A stretch of DNA of 63,367 nucleotides, filler included, from Globobulimina sp. (taxonomy: Eukaryota): assembly GCA_003354225.1 (NCBI GenBank). It is 48 parts of 48 records of this genome, joined end to end, with 100 filler letters (N's around TTAATTAATTAA, not from the genome) between each part and the next. Parts side by side here need not be neighbours in the genome. Positions count along the whole stretch, not along the records: positions 3,973 to 5,196 come from PIVH01020650.1; 47 more parts are not named here. The stretch is one strand, 5' to 3'. The position numbers were made by a program, and so were the translations under genes. The notes beneath the pieces were generated by a model. That model saw only the letters and a list, made by a program, of their open reading frames with translations. It made no database searches and was not told the DNA's origin. Shown here in pieces: positions 3,622 to 62,046 of this stretch (position 1 is the stretch's first letter; each line of letters begins with the position of its first letter).

Positions 3622-4030
3622 CGCAAAATTTATGATTTTTTCATTATTGGGTATTTATGATAATAAATATTTTTTTTGTATGTATGTTGTGTGGATGTTA
3701 AAAATATTATAATTGGCAAGAAATTTCGGAGCCATCCAATAAATCTAAAACAAGGTTGTATGTACAACTGAAACAATATACTGCACATATTAGCAAGTCT
3801 ACAAATACTGTTTCCATATGACCCTATATTCTTTCTATCTGACAGTCTAGCGTTGTCATATGAACGTATATTNNNNNNNNNNNNNNNNNNNNNNNNNNNN
3901 NNNNNNNNNNNNNNNNTTAATTAATTAANNNNNNNNNNNNNNNNNNNNNNNNNNNNNNNNNNNNNNNNNNNNTTTTGAGTCAACTGAAATTTTTTGTTTT
4001 ACATTGTATTCATTTTGCGCTCTTTAATAA

Positions 4031-5032
4031 CTAATTAATTATCTTCTTGAATTTCTCGAAATAATGATATTTTGATATAGTGTTCATGTGAGGGTCAAAA
4101 TACATGCCAGGCTTTCCTTTAGTTGTTGGGGTAGATACAACACCAAAATATATCAATTCAGGCATTGGTATCCAATAAATGAAATCCAATTTGGTCATTT
4201 CTTTGTTCCCAAGGCATATTGCAAGCACATCAAAATCAGATTCATCATACGGAACTGCCACACCACGCTTTGTTTTTGTAACACCAACCTTCCAACATCC
4301 TCTATCAGTTACGTAAGTTTTTGATTTGACTTGTACTCTCATATCCGATGTGCCATTAAATCGGTTTACAATGACATCAACTGCTCCGCCACCAACAGTT
4401 GGCCAGGTAATTTGATATTTGTTGCATAAACACCATTCGATAAACATCTGTTCGCCAAGTCTGCCATTTCTGCAATTCGCAACGCACACATTTTCTGCAC
4501 GATGTTGATTAAGAGATGACAAATCAATAAGAAATTGAGGATACTTCTGAATGGTTGACACAATAAATTGATCCAAATTATAAATTCTTCTTACGTCGCG
4601 AACACAATTTACTGCAGTACCGCAAGAGTCTATTGTCATTGTCCGATGATTTGTCTTCGTTTCATTGCTGAGTTCATACCAACAATGTATCATATCATTG
4701 TCAGCAAATCCAAATAATAGTATAACCATATTCGTATATCCCAACAAATTACTCCATGCAAAAGAGTTTCGAATATCACCAGATTTCAGGGCACGGTGGC
4801 GCTCACTACTACATTTAATTTGTATTGGCAAAAATAAGGAGTTATCATGAGATACTCCGTAATCAGCAACGCACCCTTCCTCGGAGTGACAAGTATGTAC
4901 AGACGTAATATTTTTATCCATGTAATGTTTAGCTTTTGCTTCCAAAATAAATTTAGGATTGTATGTCTGCGTTTGCAGCCATCTTCGTTGACTTATTGTA
5001 TTTGAATATCTGCATCTGCAGAAGAATGCCAT
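4031..5032 (-). CDS. Tandem PD-(D/E)XK endonuclease-domain protein with putative organellar presequence
   Basis: Complete intronless 333-aa ORF. Domain 1: E..EGCVAD..IQIK. Domain 2: GE..GAVDVIV..RVQVKS..YDESDFDVL..YWIP (PDDEXK_5-like). Confidence 0.75.
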   Translation of the reverse strand: MAFFCRCRYSNTISQRRWLQTQTYNPKFILEAKAKHYMDKNITSVHTCHSEEGCVADYGVSHDNSLFLPIQIKCSSERHRALKSGDIRNSFAWSNLLGYTNMVILLFGFADNDMIHCWYELSNETKTNHRTMTIDSCGTAVNCVRDVRRIYNLDQFIVSTIQKYPQFLIDLSSLNQHRAENVCVANCRNGRLGEQMFIEWCLCNKYQITWPTVGGGAVDVIVNRFNGTSDMRVQVKSKTYVTDRGCWKVGVTKTKRGVAVPYDESDFDVLAICLGNKEMTKLDFIYWIPMPELIYFGVVSTPTTKGKPGMYFDPHMNTISKYHYFEKFKKIIN

Positions 5033-5296
5033 TCCAAATAAAAGGTCAGTGACTTAAAAAAGCATCCAGTGGAAGATGAATAGCATGTTCTTGGTGTCTG
5101 TATTTTTCGTCAGTATTTTGCATTTAAATGGAGCAAAAAAAGTGAGTGTTGATGTGACATTACATCGCAAAGATATATTTTCTTTGTTTTCAGAGGNNNN
5201 NNNNNNNNNNNNNNNNNNNNNNNNNNNNNNNNNNNNNNNNTTAATTAATTAANNNNNNNNNNNNNNNNNNNNNNNNNNNNNNNNNNNNNNNNNNNN

Positions 5297-10588: not shown

Positions 10589-11811
10589 ACTACGCCGTAT
10601 GCCACATTCAATGGCTCCGGCCGTAGAACGCCGAAATTGCCGCACCGGCCACCCCCGAAAAACAAATCCCTCCCACCCTTGAAAATAGCCTCCAGTCTGC
10701 AACAAAAGGATGTGGTGCAAGTGACGCAGGCCAGTATCCCACATCGTATGTCCGTGACTGACCATCGTCGGTTGCATCGCCGCGCAAATACGCTCTCCAA
10801 TGCGTTGAAATTGGGCAAACATAACGCCAGCAATGTGTCGCCGTACGGCTCTGAGCCGTCACTACGCGACAGCGCCTGGCTCCGAAATCACATCAAGCAA
10901 AAGAACAACAGTGGCGACCACACGGTGGTGTTGTTGGAGGACCATCAGCAACCGTACCGCTTCCGCATCAGTGGCTTGACGAATGTGACCAAGTTGCCGC
11001 GCTTCCAAGCCATGAAGGAGAAGATCCGCCGCGTCATTGTCAGACACGAATTATGGACCGGGCCGTTGAGTTATGCGCAATGTATGTACGCCACGCCAAA
11101 TATTGCGCGCGTCAGCGACAACATGAAGTTCGCAGATTGGTGCACAGGCAAAAACGTACGGTTCTGCGAGTTGCCCCGCGAGGCAACTATTTCGCTGACG
11201 GTGTATGGTTTGTCGCCGCATGAGAAGAAGAAGAATCGTGTGGTGGAGACGCCGTTGGCCTATGTGCGGCTGCCGTTGATTGATAATAGGCACAGATTGG
11301 TGAATGGCAAGTATGTGCTGAATGTGTGGCCCATTGCAGTGTTTGTCAAAACTAAGCACGGTTTGAAATCTGATCCGTATTCGCACGGACAAGCGTTTAG
11401 ATTCCGAGGGGCTACGCGCGATCGCTTTATTATTAAGCAACAGAAACACACAACCAAAGCAGGTATGAATTGTGTAGATTTGATCTAAAAAGGCAGTTTC
11501 CAACGAGATGGATTGATCAATGCAAGTAAATGCGTGATGAGTCTATCTCGCTTGAAGGAGCATGCTGTGTCAAGCTGACATGGTGCGCTGTGTAAGTAAG
11601 TAACTTAGGGTTTTTTTTAATTTCTCTACAAAATGTAAAAAGATTCCGAAAAAAATAAATCGTCGTCAATCTTGGACCATTTTAACAAATTACAACACGA
11701 TGTATGCCAACTTTGCATTGAATTCACGCGACGCGACTTCGATGTGATAGCGCCGTTAATCAATACGGCGATTCGAAAGAAAGAGCGAAAGCGCAAAGAG
11801 AGCGCGGAACT
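10589..11811 (+). CDS. Phosphoinositide 3-kinase, C2-domain region, internal fragment, intron 11463-11642
   Basis: FCELPREATISLTVYG...PLAYVRLPLID...LVNGKYVLNVWP is a PI3K-type C2 domain; a phase-1 GTATGA...AAAG intron links to ...QLCIEF. Confidence 0.8.
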
Positions 11812-11911: not shown

Positions 11912-13134
11912 AAGCCATACTTGTCCCCAATGTCTAAAGTCATTTGCTAAGGTAGGTCCATATACTTTTGCTGGCATATACCATATGTCATGCTCCTTTC
12001 AGAATTCGAACCTGACGAGACACGTCAAAAGTGGTGCGTGTCAGAAAGTACCTGGTCAGCAATGCCCAGTATGCAACGATTCGTACCCCGACAAACGGAC
12101 CCTATCGAATCATATCAAGAAAGACCATCCGGCTCAAGCGCAGCACATGGTGCCGGACCACAAATGTTCCCAGTGCTCACAAATATTTTATCAAGTAAGC
12201 TGCAACGCATACATAAATATATTCCGTTTGCTATCCTTTAGGAGCGCAATCTGAAAAAGCACGTTGAGAAAGGAGGGTGCAAGAAACCTCAATTCGAGTG
12301 CTCCATTTGCAACAAAGGCTACTCCCTGAACAAAAATCTGCTCAGACATATGAGAGAGAAACATCCGGAACAGGCTCCGGAGAAAAAACCTCACACTCTG
12401 GCCGATGTGGAAGGTAAGGTCATAAATCGTATGCAATGTGCAATGATCATTTTCAGGCTATCACTGTTGTGGAGAATCATTTACAACAGGACGCTCATTT
12501 CGTACTCACAAAGACAGAGTGCACGTTAGAAAGCCGTTCGACAGCGTTATACCATTTGCGTGTCAATATTGTGATGAGAAATTCGGTTACAAAGTCGAAT
12601 TGATCATGCACGAAAAAGTTCATAAGCCAGACGAAGAGTCGGATTCCGATGTCGAAGATGATCAACCGCGTTACTTCAAGTGTGCATTCAAGGATTGCAA
12701 TGAGCGATTTCAAAGCAGACCCGAATTGGTCGAGCATAACTGGGTGCACAGAGACCCCATCGAGCAAGATGGTGAATTAATCAACGATAGCCAATGTGAC
12801 ATATGTCAAGAATGGTTTTGGTTTCCGGATGAGCTGAAACAACATCGAATGGACGAACACGATTTCGCAGGCGGCAGCAGTGTTCAGTACCAATGCGCAT
12901 ACATTGGATGCAACGAAACGTTCGATACCAGACAGAACCAAGCAGCTCACATGAATGAGCACGTCAAACCGACTGAAGAGGAGCCTGAGGAACAGAACGA
13001 GACCTATGGTAAGTAATATGTAGCTCAGTACCATAGCCATTTACACGTATTGCAGGACTCATCCATGACGACCTGCTGGACAACGCAGAAGTTCTGATGG
13101 ACTCGAGCAGCGCAAAAGCGCTTTACACCACTCA
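11912..13134 (+). CDS. Multi-C2H2 zinc-finger protein, partial, introns 11952-12002, 12195-12241, 12414-12456, 13009-13055
   Basis: Splicing restores intact fingers (CPQCLKSFAK|NSNLTRH; CSQCSQIFYQ|ERNLKKH). Confidence 0.85.
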
Positions 13135-20300: not shown

Positions 20301-21174
20301 AAAATACTAAGAAATCAATTACTATGACAATGGCACCTTGCCAAGCAAACTTGTTGAGATGGCTCAACTATTCATTGTCACTATTCTTAGTCATCGTATT
20401 AATCAATTTATTAAACAAAGAATCGTATGGTGAATAATAATTTCCTAACCAACGTACTATTTCATGCAGCACATAAGACACAGAGTCATCCAAATCTGTC
20501 TCACACTGTGAATGAACCAAATCCATCACACCCAAATATTGAACAAAGCCCAACCCATACAATGAACACAAAATACATCAAATCTACACTTAATGAAACA
20601 ATACCAAAACTACGCAATTTCGCAGTTCCAAATATCCGCAATTTCGCAGTATCAAATATCATCAAACTGACAGTAAATCCATTACATCCCATTACATTGA
20701 ACAAAATGACATTACGCACAATCGCATTATATCTAAACAACGATATAAATGATCACAATCCACATACTATCAAGGTAGCATATTTACAAATTTTTATTTT
20801 TAATCTTTACATATTAATTTATTTAAACACTTTAATTAACATTAAACTATCGATGTTCGTGATAAAAATGGGATTTATGTTTTGCTTTTTGCAAACTGAG
20901 GCCATTCTTTGTCACTTGTTAGTAAAACTAATGAACAAAAATGAAAAACTAATTAATTACCAGGTGTTTTTCAACACCACCAAAACTACAATGTTAACAA
21001 CTATTTACAATCTGTTTTTATGTCGGAACATCAAAACAGATTGCATTTTAATATATTGTCTGATATTTATAANNNNNNNNNNNNNNNNNNNNNNNNNNNN
21101 NNNNNNNNNNNNNNNNTTAATTAATTAANNNNNNNNNNNNNNNNNNNNNNNNNNNNNNNNNNNNNNNNNNNNTT

Positions 21175-21297
21175 GAGAGAAATGGTGAAATAGAGATACT
21201 CAAAAAATATAACAAACTGGATTTTCAGCTGTATGAATATGCCAAACTGTTGGTTGAATATGATACATATTTTCTAAAATATCTGCTTCCACCATAA
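21175..21297 (+). CDS. Golgi-type sulfotransferase C-terminus
   Basis: ILKKYNKLDFQLYEYAK matches the N.lD..LY.yA C-terminal motif. Confidence 0.5.
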   Translation, partial: ERNGEIEILKKYNKLDFQLYEYAKLLVEYDTYFLKYLLPP

Positions 21298-21469
21298 ACT
21301 ATATCGAGCTAATTTTCATCGTGATTTTTTGTTGTATACTGAAGAAAATACAAAAAGACTTCGCCATCTTATAATTATTTGAGTTATTTCAATTTCAGAA
21401 TAAACTTTGTAAACAATTGCAAGTAATAATTTATATAAAATGAAATTTACAAAAAAACACAATCAATTA

Positions 21470-22324
21470 TCAACTACGACTTCTACTCTTTGATCTTGAT
21501 CTGGAGCGACTGTTAATTGATGCCGATCTCGATCGCGATTTGCCTTTCCCGCCATTGCCAACACCTCCACTCCCATCGATGTCTACGTCCATCTTATTCT
21601 GTTTCCCGTCTTTCCTTTTAATGCCAGACAACTCTGTTTCTGTCACCCCAACAACTCCCACACCACCATCATTAGCAACCACCTCTTCGCGTTTCACCTC
21701 TTTGCCGTCCCTCGATCTATTATGTGCGCCCTCCCTTGATTTGGATGAAGACACTGACCGAGAGCCATGCTCATGATTTTTATGTGTCCGCCGTCGACTC
21801 CTTCTCGATCGGCGATGCCTATGATGGCGACGCGTCATTCTATCCCTCCGTGTCCTCGATCTGTGCCTTGAGCGTGATCGCGACCTGGATGTGGATACAG
21901 AGCGTGAATGTGACGGTGAATGCGAGGCGGACACTGACCGTGAAGGAGAACGAGTGTGTCTGTGCCGCCGCGATCTATGTCTATGATGTCTAGCTCTATG
22001 GCCATGTGAATGTGCGTGCGATTTATGTGCATGTCCATGAGAATGGGCATGCGATTTTATATCCTTTTTATGTGAATTGGAGCTCGATCCATACGCTCGA
22101 GAGCCACCATAATAACTACGACGAGTGACATGCCGCTCATTTTCATGTAAACGTGGCGACGATTTAACGGATTCATTGTCATTCTCGTTTCCCTCATTTC
22201 CATTCAGTTGGTCCAGAGTTCCATCCTCGTTGATATTGATTGGTGGCGCCTCTCCGTCTCTAGTTGTAATGAACTTGTCACTTTCACCCGGGCAAGTTTG
22301 TTTTCTTTCCTCTCGGGTCTGCAA
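21470..22324 (-). CDS. RS/His-rich low-complexity protein C-terminus
   Basis: Long ORF with SR dipeptide runs and His clusters. Confidence 0.6.
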   Translation of the reverse strand: MQTREERKQTCPGESDKFITTRDGEAPPININEDGTLDQLNGNEGNENDNESVKSSPRLHENERHVTRRSYYGGSRAYGSSSNSHKKDIKSHAHSHGHAHKSHAHSHGHRARHHRHRSRRHRHTRSPSRSVSASHSPSHSRSVSTSRSRSRSRHRSRTRRDRMTRRHHRHRRSRRSRRRTHKNHEHGSRSVSSSKSREGAHNRSRDGKEVKREEVVANDGGVGVVGVTETELSGIKRKDGKQNKMDVDIDGSGGVGNGGKGKSRSRSASINSRSRSRSKSRSRS

Positions 22325-22796
22325 CCCCGGGCAAATTGCTGGCTATTGCTGTACACTGCTCTCACTCCTGAATGGATGGACGGTCGAACTTTGCCNNNNN
22401 NNNNNNNNNNNNNNNNNNNNNNNNNNNNNNNNNNNNNNNTTAATTAATTAANNNNNNNNNNNNNNNNNNNNNNNNNNNNNNNNNNNNNNNNNNNNTCTGA
22501 AATAGGAACAAAGTCCATGACATGTTTATGTTATGTTTTACCGTATGATGTAGACGCATCAAATATCCTGGAAAATGTGTGAAAAAAGTGTTTTTAAATA
22601 ATTGCTCACAATAATCATTTTTTTCTTTGTTTTCGTTTTCGTTTTGCAGAATTGTTTGTATTGGTTGCGTTGTGATTCATTGATAAATGTTTTTTATTAT
22701 TTAATTTTCGCTTTTTTTGAGGTCGAATATTTCTTTCTTTTTCTATACTTTGTTTTTGTCTTTGAACAGATGTTGAATATTCTTTTATTTTTTTTA

Positions 22797-29107: not shown

Positions 29108-29915
29108 GTCACGTAGCCATCGCTGACCACGCGGAAACAGTGCGTTCTATGGATAAAATAATCAAACAAAGGCTTGTATTTCAGTCCTACTAACTCCGCG
29201 CCTTTGTATTCATCGATAATCTTGAATTTGAAGCCCTTTCTGCCTTTAATGATCGCGTTTTCCTTCTTGGGTTTGTGCAGTGCGGTTTTGCCACAAATGT
29301 AGTGATTGCCCTGTTCGTCTTGGAAACGGACGTAAGTCAACTTTTCGTTCACGCACAGCGCTAAGTTGCTGGGCAAGGTCCACGGCGTCGTAGTCCACGC
29401 CAAAAAGCACGTATTCTCGAATTTGGTGTCGCTGTCGCTGAGGATGGGGAAGGTGGCGATGACTGCGGGGTCTCTGCGCATTTGATAGTTGGATTTGGCC
29501 TCGAAATTGGATAACGGCGTATTGAGGGCAGTCGAGTAGGGCATCACTTTGAAATCGCGGTATACCAAACCTTTGGCATGCAATTGGCGGAAGACCCACC
29601 ATACGGATTCCATGTAGGATTTGTCCAAAGTTTTGTAGTCGTTTTCGAAATCAATCCAACGGCCCATTCTTTCGACGGTGGTCTCCCAGTCGGAGGCACA
29701 GCGCATCACAATGCCGCGGCACTCGGCGTTGTACTTTTTGATGCCGATATTCATCACATCTTCGCGGGTCTCGATGCCGAGCTTCTTCTCGATCTCGTAC
29801 TCGACGGGCAAGCCATGGCAATCCCAACCAAAGCGGCGTTCCACGTAATGGCCGGTCATGGTCGCGTACCGACAGATGACGTCCTTGATGGTGCCGGCTA
29901 AGATGTGCCCGTAGT
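29108..29915 (-). CDS. IARS1: Cytosolic isoleucyl-tRNA synthetase, internal exon
   Basis: (H)YGHILAGTIKD, RRFGWDCHGLPVE, GRWIDFENDYKT, WTTTPWTLPSN; splice acceptor at 29916 within the HIGH-type motif. Confidence 0.95.
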
Positions 29916-30429
29916 CTGTAAGTGTGTGCGTGCGGTGTTAGAATCGGACGGAAATTTCTTTTTTATTTTATTTGTACATCAAGCAAATGTTGTTTCAGTG
30001 TTAAAGAAATAAAATATCATAAATTGACTTTAATTTTCAATTTCAGGGTACAGGACTATCACAATTGTGATACGTTCATCTTTTGACAGAGATAAAATGC
30101 ATTTTGGGGATAGAAAACATACGGGGTTTTCCAGTGGCAAATGGAGGACCGCTGTTATAGTGTTATTGTGTTTTTTTGTTTTCGATGTTGTTGAGGGAAA
30201 ACAAAGAAACTTACTCATAAAAAGTGAATGGTTTGTTGTTTTTTGATTTTTGTAATTGAGTTTTGAATGCATCAATTTTGCGCCAATAATCTATAATTTT
30301 TTCTTCTTCGCGAGGAAAACTTGGTTTTCNNNNNNNNNNNNNNNNNNNNNNNNNNNNNNNNNNNNNNNNNNNNTTAATTAATTAANNNNNNNNNNNNNNN
30401 NNNNNNNNNNNNNNNNNNNNNNNNNNNNN

Positions 30430-31651: not shown

Positions 31652-31799
31652 NNNNNNNNNNNNNNNNNNNNNNNNNNNNNNNNNNNNNNNNNNNNTTAAT
31701 TAATTAANNNNNNNNNNNNNNNNNNNNNNNNNNNNNNNNNNNNNNNNNNNNCTCTGACATACCTTAGCCGCACAATTCCCTTTCAAAAACACACAACAT

Positions 31800-32935
31800 T
31801 ATCAACGCAAACAATTTCAAACGAATTATACCTAAAAAGCCCTTAATAGGGCCATCCAAAAAGCAGTGCGGTGGCGGGGTCTCTGCAGCAATTTGCTCAA
31901 TTCGGTCCAACGCCGTCTGGCCACACAACTTGACCCACGTCACTTCGCTGCGCGGTGAGTCTCGCAATTTCTTATCGCTCCGCAACTGATATATGCTTTG
32001 ACCCGCTACGATTTGCACCACACCGGTACACGAACTGTACTCCAAACATTTATCAATCGCATCGTCCAAACTCTGGTAATTGTCGCAATTATCCGTAGCG
32101 CAGTTGGCTATAAACCCACTCAGCGGACCTTCCAGGAAACAGCCACTATTTGGATCCAATAGATCGTTTTTCAAAATATCTGCCTTTTCATACATATTAA
32201 GTTCCCCAATGATCTCATTATCCTCTTCTCCAAACGGGCGCTGATAACCTCGATTGTCATTGTTGTCATCATACACATGAGGTCGGTCTGCATTGATTTG
32301 CGCCATTTCAGGGATGAATTTGCTCCATGGATCGTCACCGGCAATTGCCTGCGCATCCAAATTCCGCGCAATATGGTCAAATTGCGCACCTTCCACCAAT
32401 TTGCGAACCGACTGTGCCTCGTTTACATCATTTTTAACCGCATTTAAATCTGGCCCTCGATTCTTGGATTCCGTTTCGAGCTGCTCTTTTTCAATGGATT
32501 TCTTTTTCATCTCCATTCGATCCGCCAATCGTTTTGCTTTGGCCTCAGAGTTTTTGCTGGAGTCTTTGCCATCTAACTTTTGTAGCTCATTTTTGTGCAT
32601 TTCATCCAGTTTCTGCTGGTCTACGACTGTGTGGACATGGCATGATTGTTTGAGTAAAGCAAGTAAAAAAACTTTAGTGAAGTACACTAAGCATACCGCA
32701 TGATTTCTGCCATGACTGCTCGCCAGAAGGTGACTCACTGACTTTGCCACCACTGCGTAACTGGTAGATTTCCCTATCTTTGACTAACTGTACTATGCCA
32801 GTGCAGAGTTCATCTTTGCTGCAGACTTCCTTTGCACTGCCGATGCTGTTGTGATTGTGACAGGCGTCATTGGCGCAGCCCGACAGAAATCCATCAAATG
32901 GGCCTTTCCATGTGCACTTCATTGGTGGTGGCGCT
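31800..32935 (-). CDS. Protein with repeated six-cysteine (PAN/Apple-like) modules, internal fragment, intron 32627-32696
   Basis: Two full and one partial copy of C...GP..GF...CA...C.N..S...A...C.....CTG.VQ.V....IYQLRS..K...SP..E..W.K.C. Confidence 0.7.
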
Positions 32936-33408
32936 GTGAGTGAGTGCGAGGATCATATTAATATATTTTATTCNNNNNNNNNNNNNNNNNNNNNNNNNNN
33001 NNNNNNNNNNNNNNNNNTTAATTAATTAANNNNNNNNNNNNNNNNNNNNNNNNNNNNNNNNNNNNNNNNNNNNTTATGTATCTATGGGCGGCGACGAAGT
33101 CGCCTCAACGGCTGATATTATTAATAAGACTTATTTTATGGATCTATTGGCGGCGACGAAGTCGCCCATCTGTCGAAACCGATTTATTTATTGTGATGTA
33201 GCTCATTGGAGCATCTTATTAAATAAGATTTGGGTTCAAATCCCAATCATCAGCCAATGTGATGCAGCCAATGTGTGTTTTATTATGTACAAGTTGTGTT
33301 TTTCGTTTCTATTTTACTACCTCTAGGGCTTTTGTATGCTCAAGTTACTGGCGTTTTTTTTGGTAAAAGTAATTAATACACATTCCATATTTGAACTTGT
33401 TTCTGTTT

Positions 33409-35617: not shown

Positions 35618-37899
35618 NNNNNNNNNNNNNNNNNNNNNNNNNNNNNNNNNNNNNNNNNNNNTTAATTAATTAANNNNNNNNNNNNNNNNNNNNNNNNNNN
35701 NNNNNNNNNNNNNNNNNATGATAATGGATACAAATATAAAATGGAAGCGTTATTTAAAAAACAGTATTTTAAACAGGCGTTGTATCATGAATTGGAACAT
35801 CATTTGCATGAACATCATATCGCAAATTATAAACACCTGTATATTAATAAAATAACAGTAATCAATATACATGATTTTGGAGTGTTGAATGGATCAATAG
35901 AATTTTGTAGTATGTAAAAAATGGATCAATAGAAATGATTTCCGAGATGTTAAGACTGATCTGTCTTTTAACATCAACAAATTGTCCGTATCATTCCATT
36001 CTTTGGGTCTGAATTTATATAAACGGATGATTTCGCATAGAGCACATACTAAATTGTGTTTGCACCAATGGAATAATGGGGCGGATTGTATGTTTCCGGC
36101 CTGATTATTGTATATTGGTTCAACATGGATTGCGGCGACCATGGATTTCGATATTATTTGTGAATGCATTTAATGGTTTAATAATTGGTGCATAATTTCT
36201 TGCTCTTTTTGTGAAAGTGAATAGCTCACTCTTTGACACTTTTGAAAGTGAATAGCTCATTTCTTAAGAATTTGAATATATTGTAAATCAATTTGAATAT
36301 ATTATCGTCAATAAAAATGCAATGCAAATAAGACGTAAGTCCGATTCCAAGATTGCTGGAACAACCATGTGAGAGAAATTTGCTGCCTGAATATATATTT
36401 GCAAAGTTAAAAATATATTAAAATGTATTAGGGAGCAAGTCAAAATGATGTAATCGCTATGGGTGTGGGGTGACAACTAACTAAAACTACTAAAATCTAT
36501 TTAAATTAATTAATTTAATTGATAATAATTTAATTGACAAATGCATATTGTAGCTGACACATATTCATAATTTCATAATCCGGCTAAAAATGCCGGATAT
36601 CGGCTACTAGAATGAAAATGCCATCCTTTGTAACAAACTAGCAAAAAAAACTCGGAAATACATTTCTAAAGTCATGACGACAATGGCTACTGTTATTTTG
36701 TTTTGTATTTATTTGTGCAGCATACATAGCGAAGGTGCTTCTGTGTCTCATGGACATAAATCCTGCTCTGACATCAAATTAAACCCAGGTAAAGATTTTG
36801 TTTTTTGGTTTTTGATAATTTTGGTTTTCATACAAACATGAAACAGTGCTTCAATTAATGATATATACGACAATTCTACACATTTACATTCGCTGTTTCA
36901 TGCAATTGAACATTCACTCGATTATTCATACAATAAAACNNNNNNNNNNNNNNNNNNNNNNNNNNNNNNNNNNNNNNNNNNNNTTAATTAATTAANNNNN
37001 NNNNNNNNNNNNNNNNNNNNNNNNNNNNNNNNNNNNNNNTCCTCGTTGGCATCAATCCGACTGACACCCACAGCTTCAGCCATGACATTCATACAATGAT
37101 GCATTCCAATACAATTAAATTGACAGCGGGACCCGTAAATATCACTGAAACGTCACCCGATAGCTTCTGCATGATATTGAAGGCCCTACATCGCACCCTC
37201 AAACCGGAATGCGGCGGCAGAACCTGTGCGGTCGTGAAAGGTAAGAAAGAAGCGCAGTGACGGAGATCGATAATTTAGTTTATTATAATCGTGGCATCCT
37301 GTGTTGGCATTGCGGCGTGTCCAAAGTCATGTTTGAGCACAATGTGGTTTTAAGAATGTTACTGGACAGAAATCCGTATTCGATGTCGAATGCGAAATTG
37401 ATGGATTGGCCGCTTACCGCCACGGAGGATATAAACAATTATTTGGCAATATGCGCCTCGATGACATGTTTTACAATCATGCAGTGACCGCCGCGGAGGA
37501 GAAAGCACCGGAAGCAGACGACGAGGATAAAAACAAAATGAGATTGAACATGGATATCGTCAACGCTCTACAAATCATGCGTTATTCCTTTCGGCCGGAA
37601 CAATTAATGACATCAGAAACCAAATATGTTGTCACCGCGAAAGATCCTCCGTCAGATAACAGTGCGACCTTAAAAGGCGCCCAGTATGACCAAAGACAGA
37701 ATGTTGGGTTCAAGAAAGCTTCCGAACTGTAGGAATGGCACCAGGGGTGAGGGCATCCCTACATTCACATCGTGCCAGAATTGCAAAACAACTCATTTTT
37801 GTATCATATTTCTTTTTATCCTGTGCAGTCTCCGCTTTGTGTGTTATATATACTTCTATTACATAATTATTCTCTTTATCCCAATTAGTTATTCCATGT

Positions 37900-38261
37900 T
37901 AATATATAAAAAACGACAATTGCGCAACAAAATTAACTATGTAAAGCGCACCAGAGGCCATAACACTGTGTGGCTCTCAATCTGTTTTGACGGCCAGTCC
38001 AAACCAACCTATCTCTCGGTGAACTATGTCAGACCTTTTAAACCTGAAAATGCAGAGAGAAGCACCAAATTCTATAATAACAGAGAATGCAGAGAGAAGC
38101 ACAGACGACATCCAACGGTACACGCCGCATTGCCACAATATGTTTGTCATTGGTGATTTCAACGCCAGAATGGGTCAGGCGACCCTTGACCACAATACAA
38201 ATGCGCATTACACTCACATGAAAAGCCTACTGAACAGCACCAGTCTGAGTATTGACAATCC
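37900..38261 (+). mobile_element. Degenerate non-LTR retrotransposon APE (EEP) endonuclease fragment
   Basis: TVWLSI...YLSVNYVRP then MFVIGDFNARMG in another frame; a 17-bp direct repeat (38049-38065 / 38086-38102) sits at the frameshift. Confidence 0.65.
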
Positions 38262-56762: not shown

Positions 56763-57096
56763 NNNNNNNNNNNNNNNNNNNNNNNNNNNNNNNNNNNNNN
56801 NNNNNNTTAATTAATTAANNNNNNNNNNNNNNNNNNNNNNNNNNNNNNNNNNNNNNNNNNNNTTTTTTCATTGTTTTTTTTTTCTCATTTTTCGTGTTGT
56901 CTTTGTTCTAATCCATACATTTTGAACATTTTTAATTCGCGTTGGTTGCAAATAAATTTGCATGTGTTTGTGTTCTTTTTTCGCAATAATTCATAATTAT
57001 TTTTTATTTCATCCCATAATTATATATTGAAAACGTACACAAGCAGTTCCTTAAAAGGTTAAATTATCAAGAATCTAGCTGCCGCTCTCAAGCAGT

Positions 57097-58083
57097 ATGC
57101 GTACTGCTGTTGGACTCACCGAAAAGCAGTTATATACATTTATAGTGATATTTCGCGTTATTAACTCATTGACTATCCAAACATATTTCAATCCTGACGA
57201 ATATTGGCAATGTCTTGAGGTAGCACATTTTGATGTGTTTGGATATGGTTATCTGACATGGGAATGGTTACCTGATTGGAAAATCCGATCTTATGCGTAT
57301 CCTGCATTGATTTCGTTCATGTATTATATTTTCAAAATATTGCATCTTGACACAACGGTCTTACTAGTTTAGTTTATCAATGATTATACATGCAATGAGA
57401 CATAATTTATAATCAATAACTGAACAAGATTCATGGACCAAGAATATTACATGCAATTGGCACAGCTATTACTGATATTATGGTATATCGGTCTGCAAAC
57501 AATTGGTTTGGTAGCAAGTCAGCTAATTTCGCAGTTAATTGTTTTGTTTTTGTTTAAATAGGTTTTGATTGCATTGCATTTGATTGTAAGTACAGTTGCT
57601 GTGTTCATTGATGAATTGGTTTATATTTTATGCACTCCCACGAACATTCTCAAATTCATTGGAAACATATTTGACAATGATTGCATTTTATTATTGTTAA
57701 GTTTATACAGTTGCATCATATCCTTGCCTTCAAATTAATTTATCTTCTAATAAGGGCCATTACCAAATGCAGTTTCATCACTAACTATACCAAAACATGC
57801 TAAACATAGAAGATATGCATTAATATTTGCATCCATTGCATGCATTATTCGGATCACAAACGTTGTTATTTGGATACCATTGTTTTTAAGAGAACTTCTT
57901 ACATTGTTACATATGAAAAAATATAAATTGTTGCAACTATTTATTTTTGATGTGATAGTTATTGGTGTTATTTCAATATTAATTTTGATCGGAATTGATT
58001 CATTTTATTATGGTGAATTTACAATAACTCCCTTTAATTTTTATTGGTTTAATAACACATTGAATGGATCTGTGTTATACGGA
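57097..58083 (+). CDS. PIGB: GPI mannosyltransferase 3 (PIG-B/GPI10), 3' partial, introns 57367-57428, 57534-57595, 57696-57754
   Basis: TYFNPDEYWQCLEVAH..GYGYLTWEW..IRSY; spliced GPRIL, NWF..PRTFSNSLET, YYWP, IIRITN, DSFYYG. Confidence 0.92.
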
Positions 58084-60825: not shown

Positions 60826-62046
60826 TTCAGTCAATACCAGCAAACTCTATCCATTTGCACTCCACAACACGCATATCATTAACCAATAGCCTCGCAACTC
60901 GATTCCATACCATATCACCATCCAATCAACAACCGCATAAAAAAATAAATGCTCTAAACAAATATCACCACACTCTCTACACCCATACACGACCTAACAT
61001 TCACACCATTTCATCACATCGAAAATTCAAGAAATTTCAACCTAACACTTCTAACCACAAACAACACAGCAAACTGTTCAAACATAACCAGCAATATTTC
61101 AACGCTGCTTCCTCGCAAAAAAAAGACTATTACGAAACACTGGGCCTTCCCCGAGATGCAAAAGACACCGAAGTAAAGAAAACATTCTATAAAGTTAAAC
61201 CTACACACATTTCCCCGCAAGGAAATTTCCATAAATTTCGCCCACATTCACTCAAACAACACCACACTGCCACAGCTAGCAAAACAATGGCATCCCGATG
61301 CCAACAAAGCGCCCGAAGCCAAGGACAAGTTCTCCGAAATCAACGAAGCGTATCAAGTGCTATCCAACAAAGAGAAACGCGCTCAATATGATAGATTCGG
61401 CCATGACATGAATAACATGGGCGGTATGGGCGGATTTAACGCCGCTGACATTAATTTGAATGATTTATTCGAGAACTTGTTCGGTCGCAATACGGGCGGC
61501 GGTGGGTTTAATCCCTTCGGCGATCTATTTGGCGCAATGGGTGGTGGGCAAGAAATGAATGACCCAAACGCACCGCAGCATGGCCGTGATTTACAAGTCG
61601 ACGTCGCATTGACTTTCATGGAGGCTGTAAATGGCAGCAGTCGAGAATTAAAACTACAGCGCTTTGATGAGTGCAACCTGTGTAAGAGCAGTGGCATTGA
61701 AGCTGGCACGAAATCCGTCAAATGCAGTACTTGCGAAGGCAAAGGGAGAATGGTGCAGCAATCTGGCTTTATGGTGATACAGCAGACGTGTTGGGATTGC
61801 AATGGTGCTGGGCATAAGCACACAAATTGCAAACAGTGCCAAGGCAGCGGGTTAAGCTCAAATGTGTCGTCATTGGATGTCAATATCCCCGCCGGCGTGG
61901 ATGATGGCACTCGAGTTCGCATTGCCGGGCAAGGCCATTGTGGCAAGAATCATGGCGGTCGCGGCCATGCGTGGTTGCTCTGCAAAGTGAAATCGGATGA
62001 GCGGTTTGAGAGAAATGGGTCGGACGTTCATATCAGTGTTAATGTG
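60826..62046 (+). CDS. Mitochondrial type I DnaJ (Mdj1/Tid1-like), partial, intron 61194-61275
   Basis: [21 protein letters not shown] region; CxxCxGxG repeats; IPAGVDDG; basic presequence-like N-terminus. Confidence 0.92.

Follow-up and report, generated by a model that had tools for sequence, protein, structure and literature searches.

In single-chain LAGLIDADG homing endonucleases, a homodimeric nuclease has become a fused pseudo-dimer that reads asymmetric sites. PD-(D/E)XK homing endonucleases of the I-Ssp6803I type are described as single-domain, mostly cyanobacterial proteins that must tetramerise (PMC3384342). The window analysed here is a stretch of 63,367 bases from an assembly of Globobulimina sp. 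(GCA_003354225.1), and the gene in question is an open reading frame (ORF) on its minus strand that encodes a protein of 333 residues (P0001; Table 1). Two PD-(D/E)XK domains were found in tandem in this protein. It is probably the product of an intronless, foraminiferan-type nuclear gene, and would be a single-chain endonuclease with a C-terminal domain of the I-Ssp6803I/PDDEXK_5 type. The fold, motif and family of the C-terminal half (C half) are known already. In the open-access literature searched, as far as its accessible text goes, no description was found of the tandem fusion, of its spread over foraminifera, a dinoflagellate and giant viruses, or of presequence-like leaders.

Two PD-(D/E)XK domains in one chain

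The reading frame was uninterrupted, with an in-frame TAA (5054-5056) 8 codons upstream of the first ATG. Motif residues were located at E31, E52, D57 and Q71-I-K73 in the N-terminal half (N half), and at E194, D219, Q234-V-K236, YDESDFD (262-268) and YWIPM (286-290) in the C half.

The C half was assigned to the I-Ssp6803I type because Pfam, a family profile and model superposition agreed, and the assignment is well supported. The Pfam PDDEXK_5 match scored 26.5 bits (gathering score 26.1 bits), and PHROG 5018, of unknown function, matched residues 190-280 (E 8e-10). A 17-member family profile was searched against PDB sequences and found I-Ssp6803I (2ost) at E 4.2e-8 and MepB (4lqe) at E 4.5e-8; in the profile alignment the Asp and the Gln-Val-Lys of the family stood in register with YDLVF and VQVKS of 2ost. 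These residues were invariant in the family members covering them (D 22/22, Q 23/23, K 22/22). Ten of the 25 family members matched PDDEXK_5 by themselves (best E 3.7e-18), and five matched the MepB-like family. Phmmer of the single protein against PDB sequences gave chance haemagglutinin matches alone (E 0.024 or weaker), and scans of NCBIfam and PADLOC at E up to 1 gave no match.

An AlphaFold2 model was built from an alignment of 25 sequences (predicted local distance difference test, pLDDT, 87.4; predicted template modelling score, pTM, 0.81). A single-sequence model was discarded (pLDDT 33.5). Residues 183-333 of the model were superposed on 2ost_A with VIA-align at Z 14.4 and a root-mean-square deviation (rmsd) of 3.0 Å over 133 of 148 residues, and the C half was superposed on MepB at Z 11.9. 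Foldseek gave the C-terminal domain template modelling scores (TM-scores) of 0.66-0.71, normalised to the target.

None of the sequence libraries (Pfam, PHROG, NCBIfam, PADLOC) recognised the N half. Support for a second such domain there comes from structure matches, profile alignment of the N half with the C half, and aligned Asp and Gln-x-Lys residues, which concur. Among the listed PDB matches confined to model residues 7-178, all were PD-(D/E)XK nucleases except 2dbs_B, a hypothetical protein (Z 4.0). SPARDA DREN chains 9qbp_C and 9qbq_C were superposed by VIA-align at Z 7.9 and 7.8 over 118-121 residues (model residues 25/26-177). Lower Z values were obtained for fusellovirus D212 (7.3), RecU (6.4), an HsdR nuclease fragment (6.0), BpuSI (5.4) and SwaI (5.2), and the further nuclease matches were DrdV, BsaWI, VRR_NUC, Vsr and I-Bth0305I.

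The N profile (18 sequences) was aligned with the C profile (22 sequences) using hhalign, yielding a probability of 71%, P 3.7e-5 and a score of 31.2. Column-shuffled N profiles (n = 60) had a mean score of 8.1 and a maximum of 14.0, and none of the 60 reached the observed score; on a smaller alignment P was 0.0044. D57 was paired with D219, and Q71-x-K73 with Q234-x-K236, so that an Asp...Gln-x-Lys triad is present in both halves (D57/Q71/K73 and D219/Q234/K236).

With the whole model as query, the top Foldseek match in the PDB was engineered single-chain PvuII (3ksk_A), aligned across both halves (E 2.9e-5, 355 columns). Superposition on it was poor (rmsd 16.6 Å by Foldseek; Z 6.9 and rmsd 10.2 Å by VIA-align), and the mutual orientation of the domains therefore differs or is not captured. 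Homodimer prediction with two copies of residues 25-333 scored 0.00, which is no answer and speaks neither for nor against binding.

The preliminary description of this DNA had claimed a complete, intronless 333-residue ORF with two PD-(D/E)XK cores fused in tandem, the second of them likened to I-Ssp6803I/PDDEXK_5. Each of these claims was upheld: the ORF was complete, on the minus strand at 4031-5032, downstream of an in-frame stop; both quoted cores were found in it at the residues given above; the frame ran without interruption, while an Alg9-like gene of the same assembly has introns; and the Pfam score, the profile match to 2ost and the superposition on 2ost_A agreed with the family named for the second core. 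Modelling and structure search matched nuclease folds in both halves. The Pfam search matched the C half and left the N half unrecognised. The tandem PD-(D/E)XK architecture is confirmed, with moderate strength for the N half as a more diverged domain of the restriction-endonuclease fold, as judged from the predicted model and profiles.

The two domains would form a covalent pseudo-dimer with one metal-dependent active site each, at Asp57/Gln71/Lys73 and at Glu194/Asp219/Gln234/Lys236. Each site would bind a divalent metal and cut one strand, so that a single polypeptide could cut both strands of an asymmetric target.

Table 1. Positions of the nuclease gene, its parts and other features along the window.
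Feature	Position	Strand	Basis or remark
Complete uninterrupted ORF (P0001)	4031..5032	-	333 residues and TAG stop at 4031-4033
N-terminal leader, residues 1-24	4961..5032	-	4 Arg, 0 Asp/Glu; rich in Ser/Thr/Gln/Asn; low model confidence
N-terminal PD-(D/E)XK-fold domain and helical linker, residues 25-177	4502..4960	-	structure matches; hhalign against C half
Asp57, putative metal-binding Asp of N half	4862..4864	-	aligns with D219; present in 12/18 covering family members
Gln71-Ile72-Lys73, QxK of N half	4814..4822	-	family alignment; hhalign
C-terminal I-Ssp6803I/PDDEXK_5-type domain, residues 183-333	4034..4486	-	structure superposition
Pfam PF11645 PDDEXK_5 match, residues 190-296	4145..4465	-	E 7.3e-6
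Glu194, helix 1 of C half (GRxGE motif)	4451..4453	-	family alignment
Asp219, active site of C half	4376..4378	-	aligns with Asp of YDLVF in I-Ssp6803I
Gln234-Val235-Lys236, C half	4325..4333	-	aligns with VQVKS of I-Ssp6803I
Gene-bearing contig (piece 4)	3973..5196		1224 bp; N/TTAATTAATTAA spacers on both sides
High-GC contigs	10589-11811, 11912-13134, 21173-22395, 29108-30329, 31752-32973, 37040-38261, 60826-62046		44-49% GC

Relatives in foraminifera and environmental contigs, and fold matches in giant viruses

Relatives were collected with phmmer from 1.84 billion representatives, yielding 22 proteins, four of them at E <= 1e-10. The nearest were transcripts of the foraminifera Bolivina argentea and Nonionella stella (E 2e-40 and 4e-24, respectively); the best homologue, B. 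argentea P0002 (305 residues), was matched over its full length. The foraminiferan group comprises P0002 and P0013 of B. argentea, P0004, P0005 and P0021 of N. stella, and in addition P0003 and P0011. A second group, of 339-388 residues, is formed by P0006, P0008, P0009, P0010, P0012 and P0015. The viral-type group holds P0014, P0017, P0019, P0023, P0024 and P0025, and also P0018 and P0022; some of its members have extra N-terminal domains, and in P0023, P0024 and P0025 about 140-170 extra residues precede the tandem. The remaining relative, P0007, is a gene model of 764 residues from Symbiodinium, a dinoflagellate, named TTLL3D by its source. A Pfam TTL domain was found in 1 of the 25 family members, presumably P0007; an AP2-like segment suspected in that protein was dropped, as Pfam gave the TTL domain alone.

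The two-domain architecture was kept in the relatives from other foraminifera, the dinoflagellate and environmental contigs. Triads were intact in both halves in the window protein, the other foraminiferan members, Symbiodinium and the viral-type members. The N-half triad was kept in 12 of the 18 family members covering it and lost in the six members of the second group, which retain the N domain and a conserved Glu (the E52 column). A conserved C-terminal tail of about 40 residues, absent from the window protein, was also seen in these six. In I-Ssp6803I, two subunits of the required homotetramer touch DNA and two are architectural (PMC3384342). Judged from the alignment, the subgroup without the N-half triad looks like a tandem version of such a division, and may be the covalent form of the catalytic-plus-structural arrangement of I-Ssp6803I.

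In a tree drawn with midpoint rooting, the window protein was placed on the foraminiferan side, away from the viral-type clade; support for this split was 90/96, below the star threshold of the tool, and resolution within the foraminiferan-side group was poor. The environmental viral-type clade (P0014, P0017, P0019, P0023 and P0024), whose viral origin is putative, matched the window protein at E 3e-6 to 8e-4.

The whole model was also compared with the predicted structures of BFVD, with TMq denoting the query-normalised TM-score. Full-length matches were obtained for Klosneuvirus KNV1 A0A1V0SIJ8 (E 1.7e-16, TMq 0.65, 318 columns), Hyperionvirus A0A3G5A8P9 (E 2.8e-16, TMq 0.61, 350 columns) and Aureococcus anophagefferens virus (AaV) A0A076FH51 (E 5.1e-13, TMq 0.65, 343 columns). 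From rank 5 onward the matches were single-domain phage proteins, with E values of 8.9e-6 or weaker. Proteins with this two-domain fold are thus present in giant viruses, and the likeness of fold suggests that the fusion may have a common ancestry.

Other searches added little. A word-indexed homologue search with the single protein gave nothing, its index requiring shared 5-mers so that blanks say little; with alignments A1 and A6 it returned three and four proteins, P0024 and P0025 being the sole additions. A tblastn search of 50,697 phage records gave no match. The ESM Atlas returned bacterial clusters alone, at 0.89-0.91, which was uninformative. Pattern scans of IMG/VR viral contigs (P0019, P0014, A5) and of metagenome contigs (A5, A7) gave pattern matches and no confirmed relative, by a method that reaches close relatives only.

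Leader, variant copies and the choice between readings

The preliminary description had noted an acid-free basic N-terminus, and this was seen in the first 24 residues. The leader was poorly defined in the model, with residues 1-11 and 16-18 under pLDDT 50 and block means of 31 (residues 1-10) and 50 (residues 11-20). Homologues do not start downstream: eight of the nine full-length eukaryote-type members have an extension of 15-39 residues before the first domain helix, with no conservation of sequence. These eight leaders hold 3-8 Lys+Arg and 0-2 Asp+Glu. When the leaders were pooled, Asp+Glu amounted to 3.6% against 10.5% in the remainder of the proteins (Fisher p 4e-4), Lys+Arg to 18.5% against 13.1% (p 0.03) and Ser+Thr to 19.4% against 13.1%. 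Members of the viral-type clade have short leaders without basic make-up, or extra domains instead. As a control, ATG-started ORFs of at least 150 residues with an upstream stop were taken from the window, a small and rough sample, and one of the 21, the nuclease ORF, began with 24 acid-free residues including at least four basic ones. Arg16-Arg17 could precede a presequence cleavage site. A signal peptide was considered and dropped, the leader having no hydrophobic core. That the leader is a cleavable mitochondrial presequence is a real possibility, somewhat short of an even one, which rests on its composition and on comparison with the relatives. If it is one, the substrate would be mitochondrial DNA, and a role in its processing or elimination is speculation.

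The nuclease stretch was found in sequencing runs from two studies, a point in favour of residence in the host. The runs contain several copies of the gene at about 90-97% identity. Among the 40 listed of the 50 copy differences, 31 were nonsynonymous and 9 synonymous. For the listed differences the ratio of nonsynonymous to synonymous differences per site (pN/pS) was 0.90, with a binomial p of 0.85 against the neutral expectation of 0.79; no stop or frameshift was among them, and the sole indel was an in-frame insertion of 6 nt. This insertion, in a contig of run X1, lies behind position 4983, in the leader. Other contigs of the runs carry many differences, mostly nonsynonymous, in residues 198-311. 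The insertion and the many differences mean that several paralogous or allelic copies exist; errors and mixed copies are possible because the run contigs are short and of low depth. Such variation is in keeping with a gene family that is selfish or under birth-and-death turnover, or with recognition loops that diversify, and not with strong purifying selection among recent copies. All run contigs were short, and none spans the stretch or gives interpretable flanks. No RNA run was among the runs listed with the stretch, which has no bearing on expression.

The gene resembles the bulk of the assembly in composition. Its codon usage correlated with the pooled window ORFs at r 0.69, the 14th lowest of 35, and its GC content at third codon positions (GC3) was 0.31, within the AT-rich majority; the outliers were a few contigs at 45-52% GC. 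A mitochondrion-encoded gene was considered and dropped, the composition and the standard-code ORF being like those of other window genes.

Several points weigh against an intronless foraminiferan nuclear gene for a two-domain, two-site nuclease, or against the organelle role that might be attached to it. The PDDEXK_5 match clears the Pfam cutoff by just 0.4 bit, which is marginal, and the AlphaFold2 model was built on a shallow alignment of 25 sequences. For the N domain, Z did not exceed 7.9, where the tool rates values below 8 as middling, and was obtained with the whole-chain model. The acid of the N site is uncertain because E31 falls, in the hhalign alignment, one helical turn ahead of the position paired with E194, and part of the family can do without the N site, since six members lost its triad. 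As to targeting, P0008 has no leader and begins three residues before the domain, and the window leader is weakly amphipathic, with a maximum helical moment of 0.36 against 0.41-0.74 in seven homologue leaders. Near-neutral copies fit decay or selfishness better than a housekeeping organelle enzyme. Because the contig has no flanking genes, there is room for a viral or endogenous-viral setting.

The last point bears on the reading of the gene as a giant-virus gene or a recent endogenous insertion, in which a viral free-standing homing or competition endonuclease would carry an incidentally basic N-terminus. It would account for the whole-fold matches to Klosneuvirus, Hyperionvirus and AaV, for an intronless nuclease gene in an assembly where another gene has introns, and for divergent copies that vary near-neutrally, on a contig too short to show host flanks. 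Sequence points elsewhere: the foraminiferan relatives were found at E values of 2e-40 and 4e-24 against 3e-6 to 8e-4 for the viral-type clade, the tree put the protein on the foraminiferan side (with support below the star threshold), and codon usage resembles that of the AT-rich majority. Basic leaders are seen in the eukaryote-type members and are missing from the viral-type clade, and the IMG/VR pattern scans found no relative, though reaching close relatives only. This origin is considered distinctly unlikely. The preliminary description had guessed at a protist host and at a viral or mobile origin. The former fits, given the best homologues in B. argentea and N. stella; for the latter, a link to giant viruses was gained at the level of fold (E 1.7e-16 to 5e-13), while in sequence the protein is closest to foraminifera.

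A selfish gene on nuclear DNA, free-standing and homing-endonuclease-like, with the leader serving as a DNA-contacting arm or a nuclear-import element, is unlikely by a lesser measure. Kinship with a homing-endonuclease family, divergent paralogues within a species (P0002 and P0013 in Bolivina; P0004, P0005 and P0021 in Nonionella) and run variants at 90-97% identity with pN/pS 0.90 are what it would predict. It is at odds with leaders that vary in sequence and length and are uniform in composition, a pattern that characterises targeting peptides rather than DNA-binding arms, and with the low pLDDT of leader residues 1-11 and 16-18. The listed variants contain no stop or frameshift and a sole, in-frame indel, and the surroundings of the ORF have no repeat or intron structure. 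Unlikely to a similar degree is capture of a giant-virus-type tandem nuclease by foraminifera, and probably other protists, with addition of a presequence, the protein then being imported to cut mitochondrial DNA at asymmetric sites. Such cutting might serve recombination, copy-number control or selective elimination; paralogues would diversify their DNA-reading loops, and near-neutral pN/pS would reflect changing specificity, not decay. The near-neutral differences among variant copies weaken the domestication that the preliminary description had proposed. Very improbable is a non-catalytic or single-site protein with one or both halves as a DNA-binding or structural module: six relatives without the N-half D/Q/K still retain the domain, and two of the four I-Ssp6803I subunits are architectural (PMC3384342), but both triads are intact in the window, other foraminiferan, Symbiodinium and viral-type members.

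The foraminiferan nuclear gene for a single-chain, two-domain endonuclease is preferred over these accounts. Its family may go back to free-standing genes resembling those of homing endonucleases, of a kind also circulating in giant viruses, and may survive in the genomes of foraminifera as a small family with several rapidly changing copies.

Contig context and comparison with known systems

The window consists of 48 length-sorted pieces of 1221-1224 bp each and is not a single locus. The pieces are separated by spacers of 100 bases, with runs of N around TTAATTAATTAA. As the contigs were joined artificially in this way, window sequence adjoining the nuclease contig is unrelated to it and is not its genomic neighbourhood, and any finding based on adjacency across spacers is an artefact. 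The nuclease ORF is the sole gene on its contig. Tblastn of the protein against the window gave no paralogue among the remaining 47 contigs (the next best match had E 0.69), and an Rfam scan of the contig at E up to 1 found no family, group I introns included. DNA comparison found no meaningful repeats on the contig, nor did the two halves of the gene resemble each other at the DNA level. At the 5' end of the contig (5147-5196), contigs of much greater depth from runs X2 and X4 (52 and 82) match only the last 36-48 bases and then diverge. A repeated element may include this end and could be the reason why the assembly stops there.

Ordinary eukaryotic domains were found on other contigs of the window: PI3K C2, adaptin, La, SAM, protein kinase, FHA, TLDc, DnaJ, Alg9-like and TPR_12, with a Pfam match at E <= 1e-5 in 18 of 45 longest ORFs. 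An open-ended ORF at 3-1223 is packed with TPR_12-type repeats (E 3e-39). The Alg9-like mannosyltransferase gene (56863-58083) lies in at least three frame-shifted pieces, matching Pfam positions 2-79, 115-147 and 159-253 in order, with gaps of about 50-220 nt between exons. This means that the assembly represents genomic DNA, with short introns in at least one other gene. The seven contigs of high GC content (Table 1) stand apart from the remainder, at 26-39%. In the codon comparison, the longest ORFs of five of them correlated poorly with the majority (r -0.12 to 0.50). These contigs may derive from a second organism in the sample, or else represent a separate compartment of the genome.

I-Ssp6803I of Synechocystis (PDB 2OST, PF11645) shares with the window protein the fold of the C half, at 19% identity, and the Asp...Gln-Val-Lys in register. 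It differs in being a single domain of about 150 residues, active as a homotetramer and encoded by a group I intron (PMC3384342), whereas the window protein has two domains in a chain of 333 residues, an N-terminal leader and a free-standing gene in a eukaryotic assembly. No group I intron was found on the contig of the window gene, which bears on homing biology and not on membership of the domain family. MepB (PDB 4LQE, PF08877) resembles the C half together with its C-terminal extension; it is a single-domain bacterial protein, and the window protein itself gave no Pfam MepB-like match. In structure the N half is matched best by SPARDA DREN (9QBP, 9QBQ) and fusellovirus D212 (2W8M); the DREN chains match the C half as well (Z 8.8-9.2). 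DREN and D212 are set apart by 8-9% identity and middling Z, and the window gene has no Argonaute partner or other such context. The giant-virus proteins (A0A1V0SIJ8, A0A3G5A8P9 and A0A076FH51) have the full two-domain fold; they are uncharacterised, longer (428-587 residues, with extra parts) and only 14-17% identical. The tandem family is a concrete case in which gene flow between rhizarian hosts and giant viruses can be studied, and the window protein, if its leader is a presequence, would be a candidate for a nuclease that acts on the mitochondrial genome of foraminifera, of which little is known.

Engineered single-chain PvuII (PDB 3KSK) likewise has two PD-(D/E)XK domains in tandem in one chain, but was made artificially by fusing two copies of one subunit. 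The tandem family could offer compact monomeric nucleases with long asymmetric target sites. A natural covalent tandem would be the restriction-fold counterpart of the single-chain LAGLIDADG enzymes, which it resembles in evolutionary logic and from which it differs in having an unrelated fold and catalytic motif.

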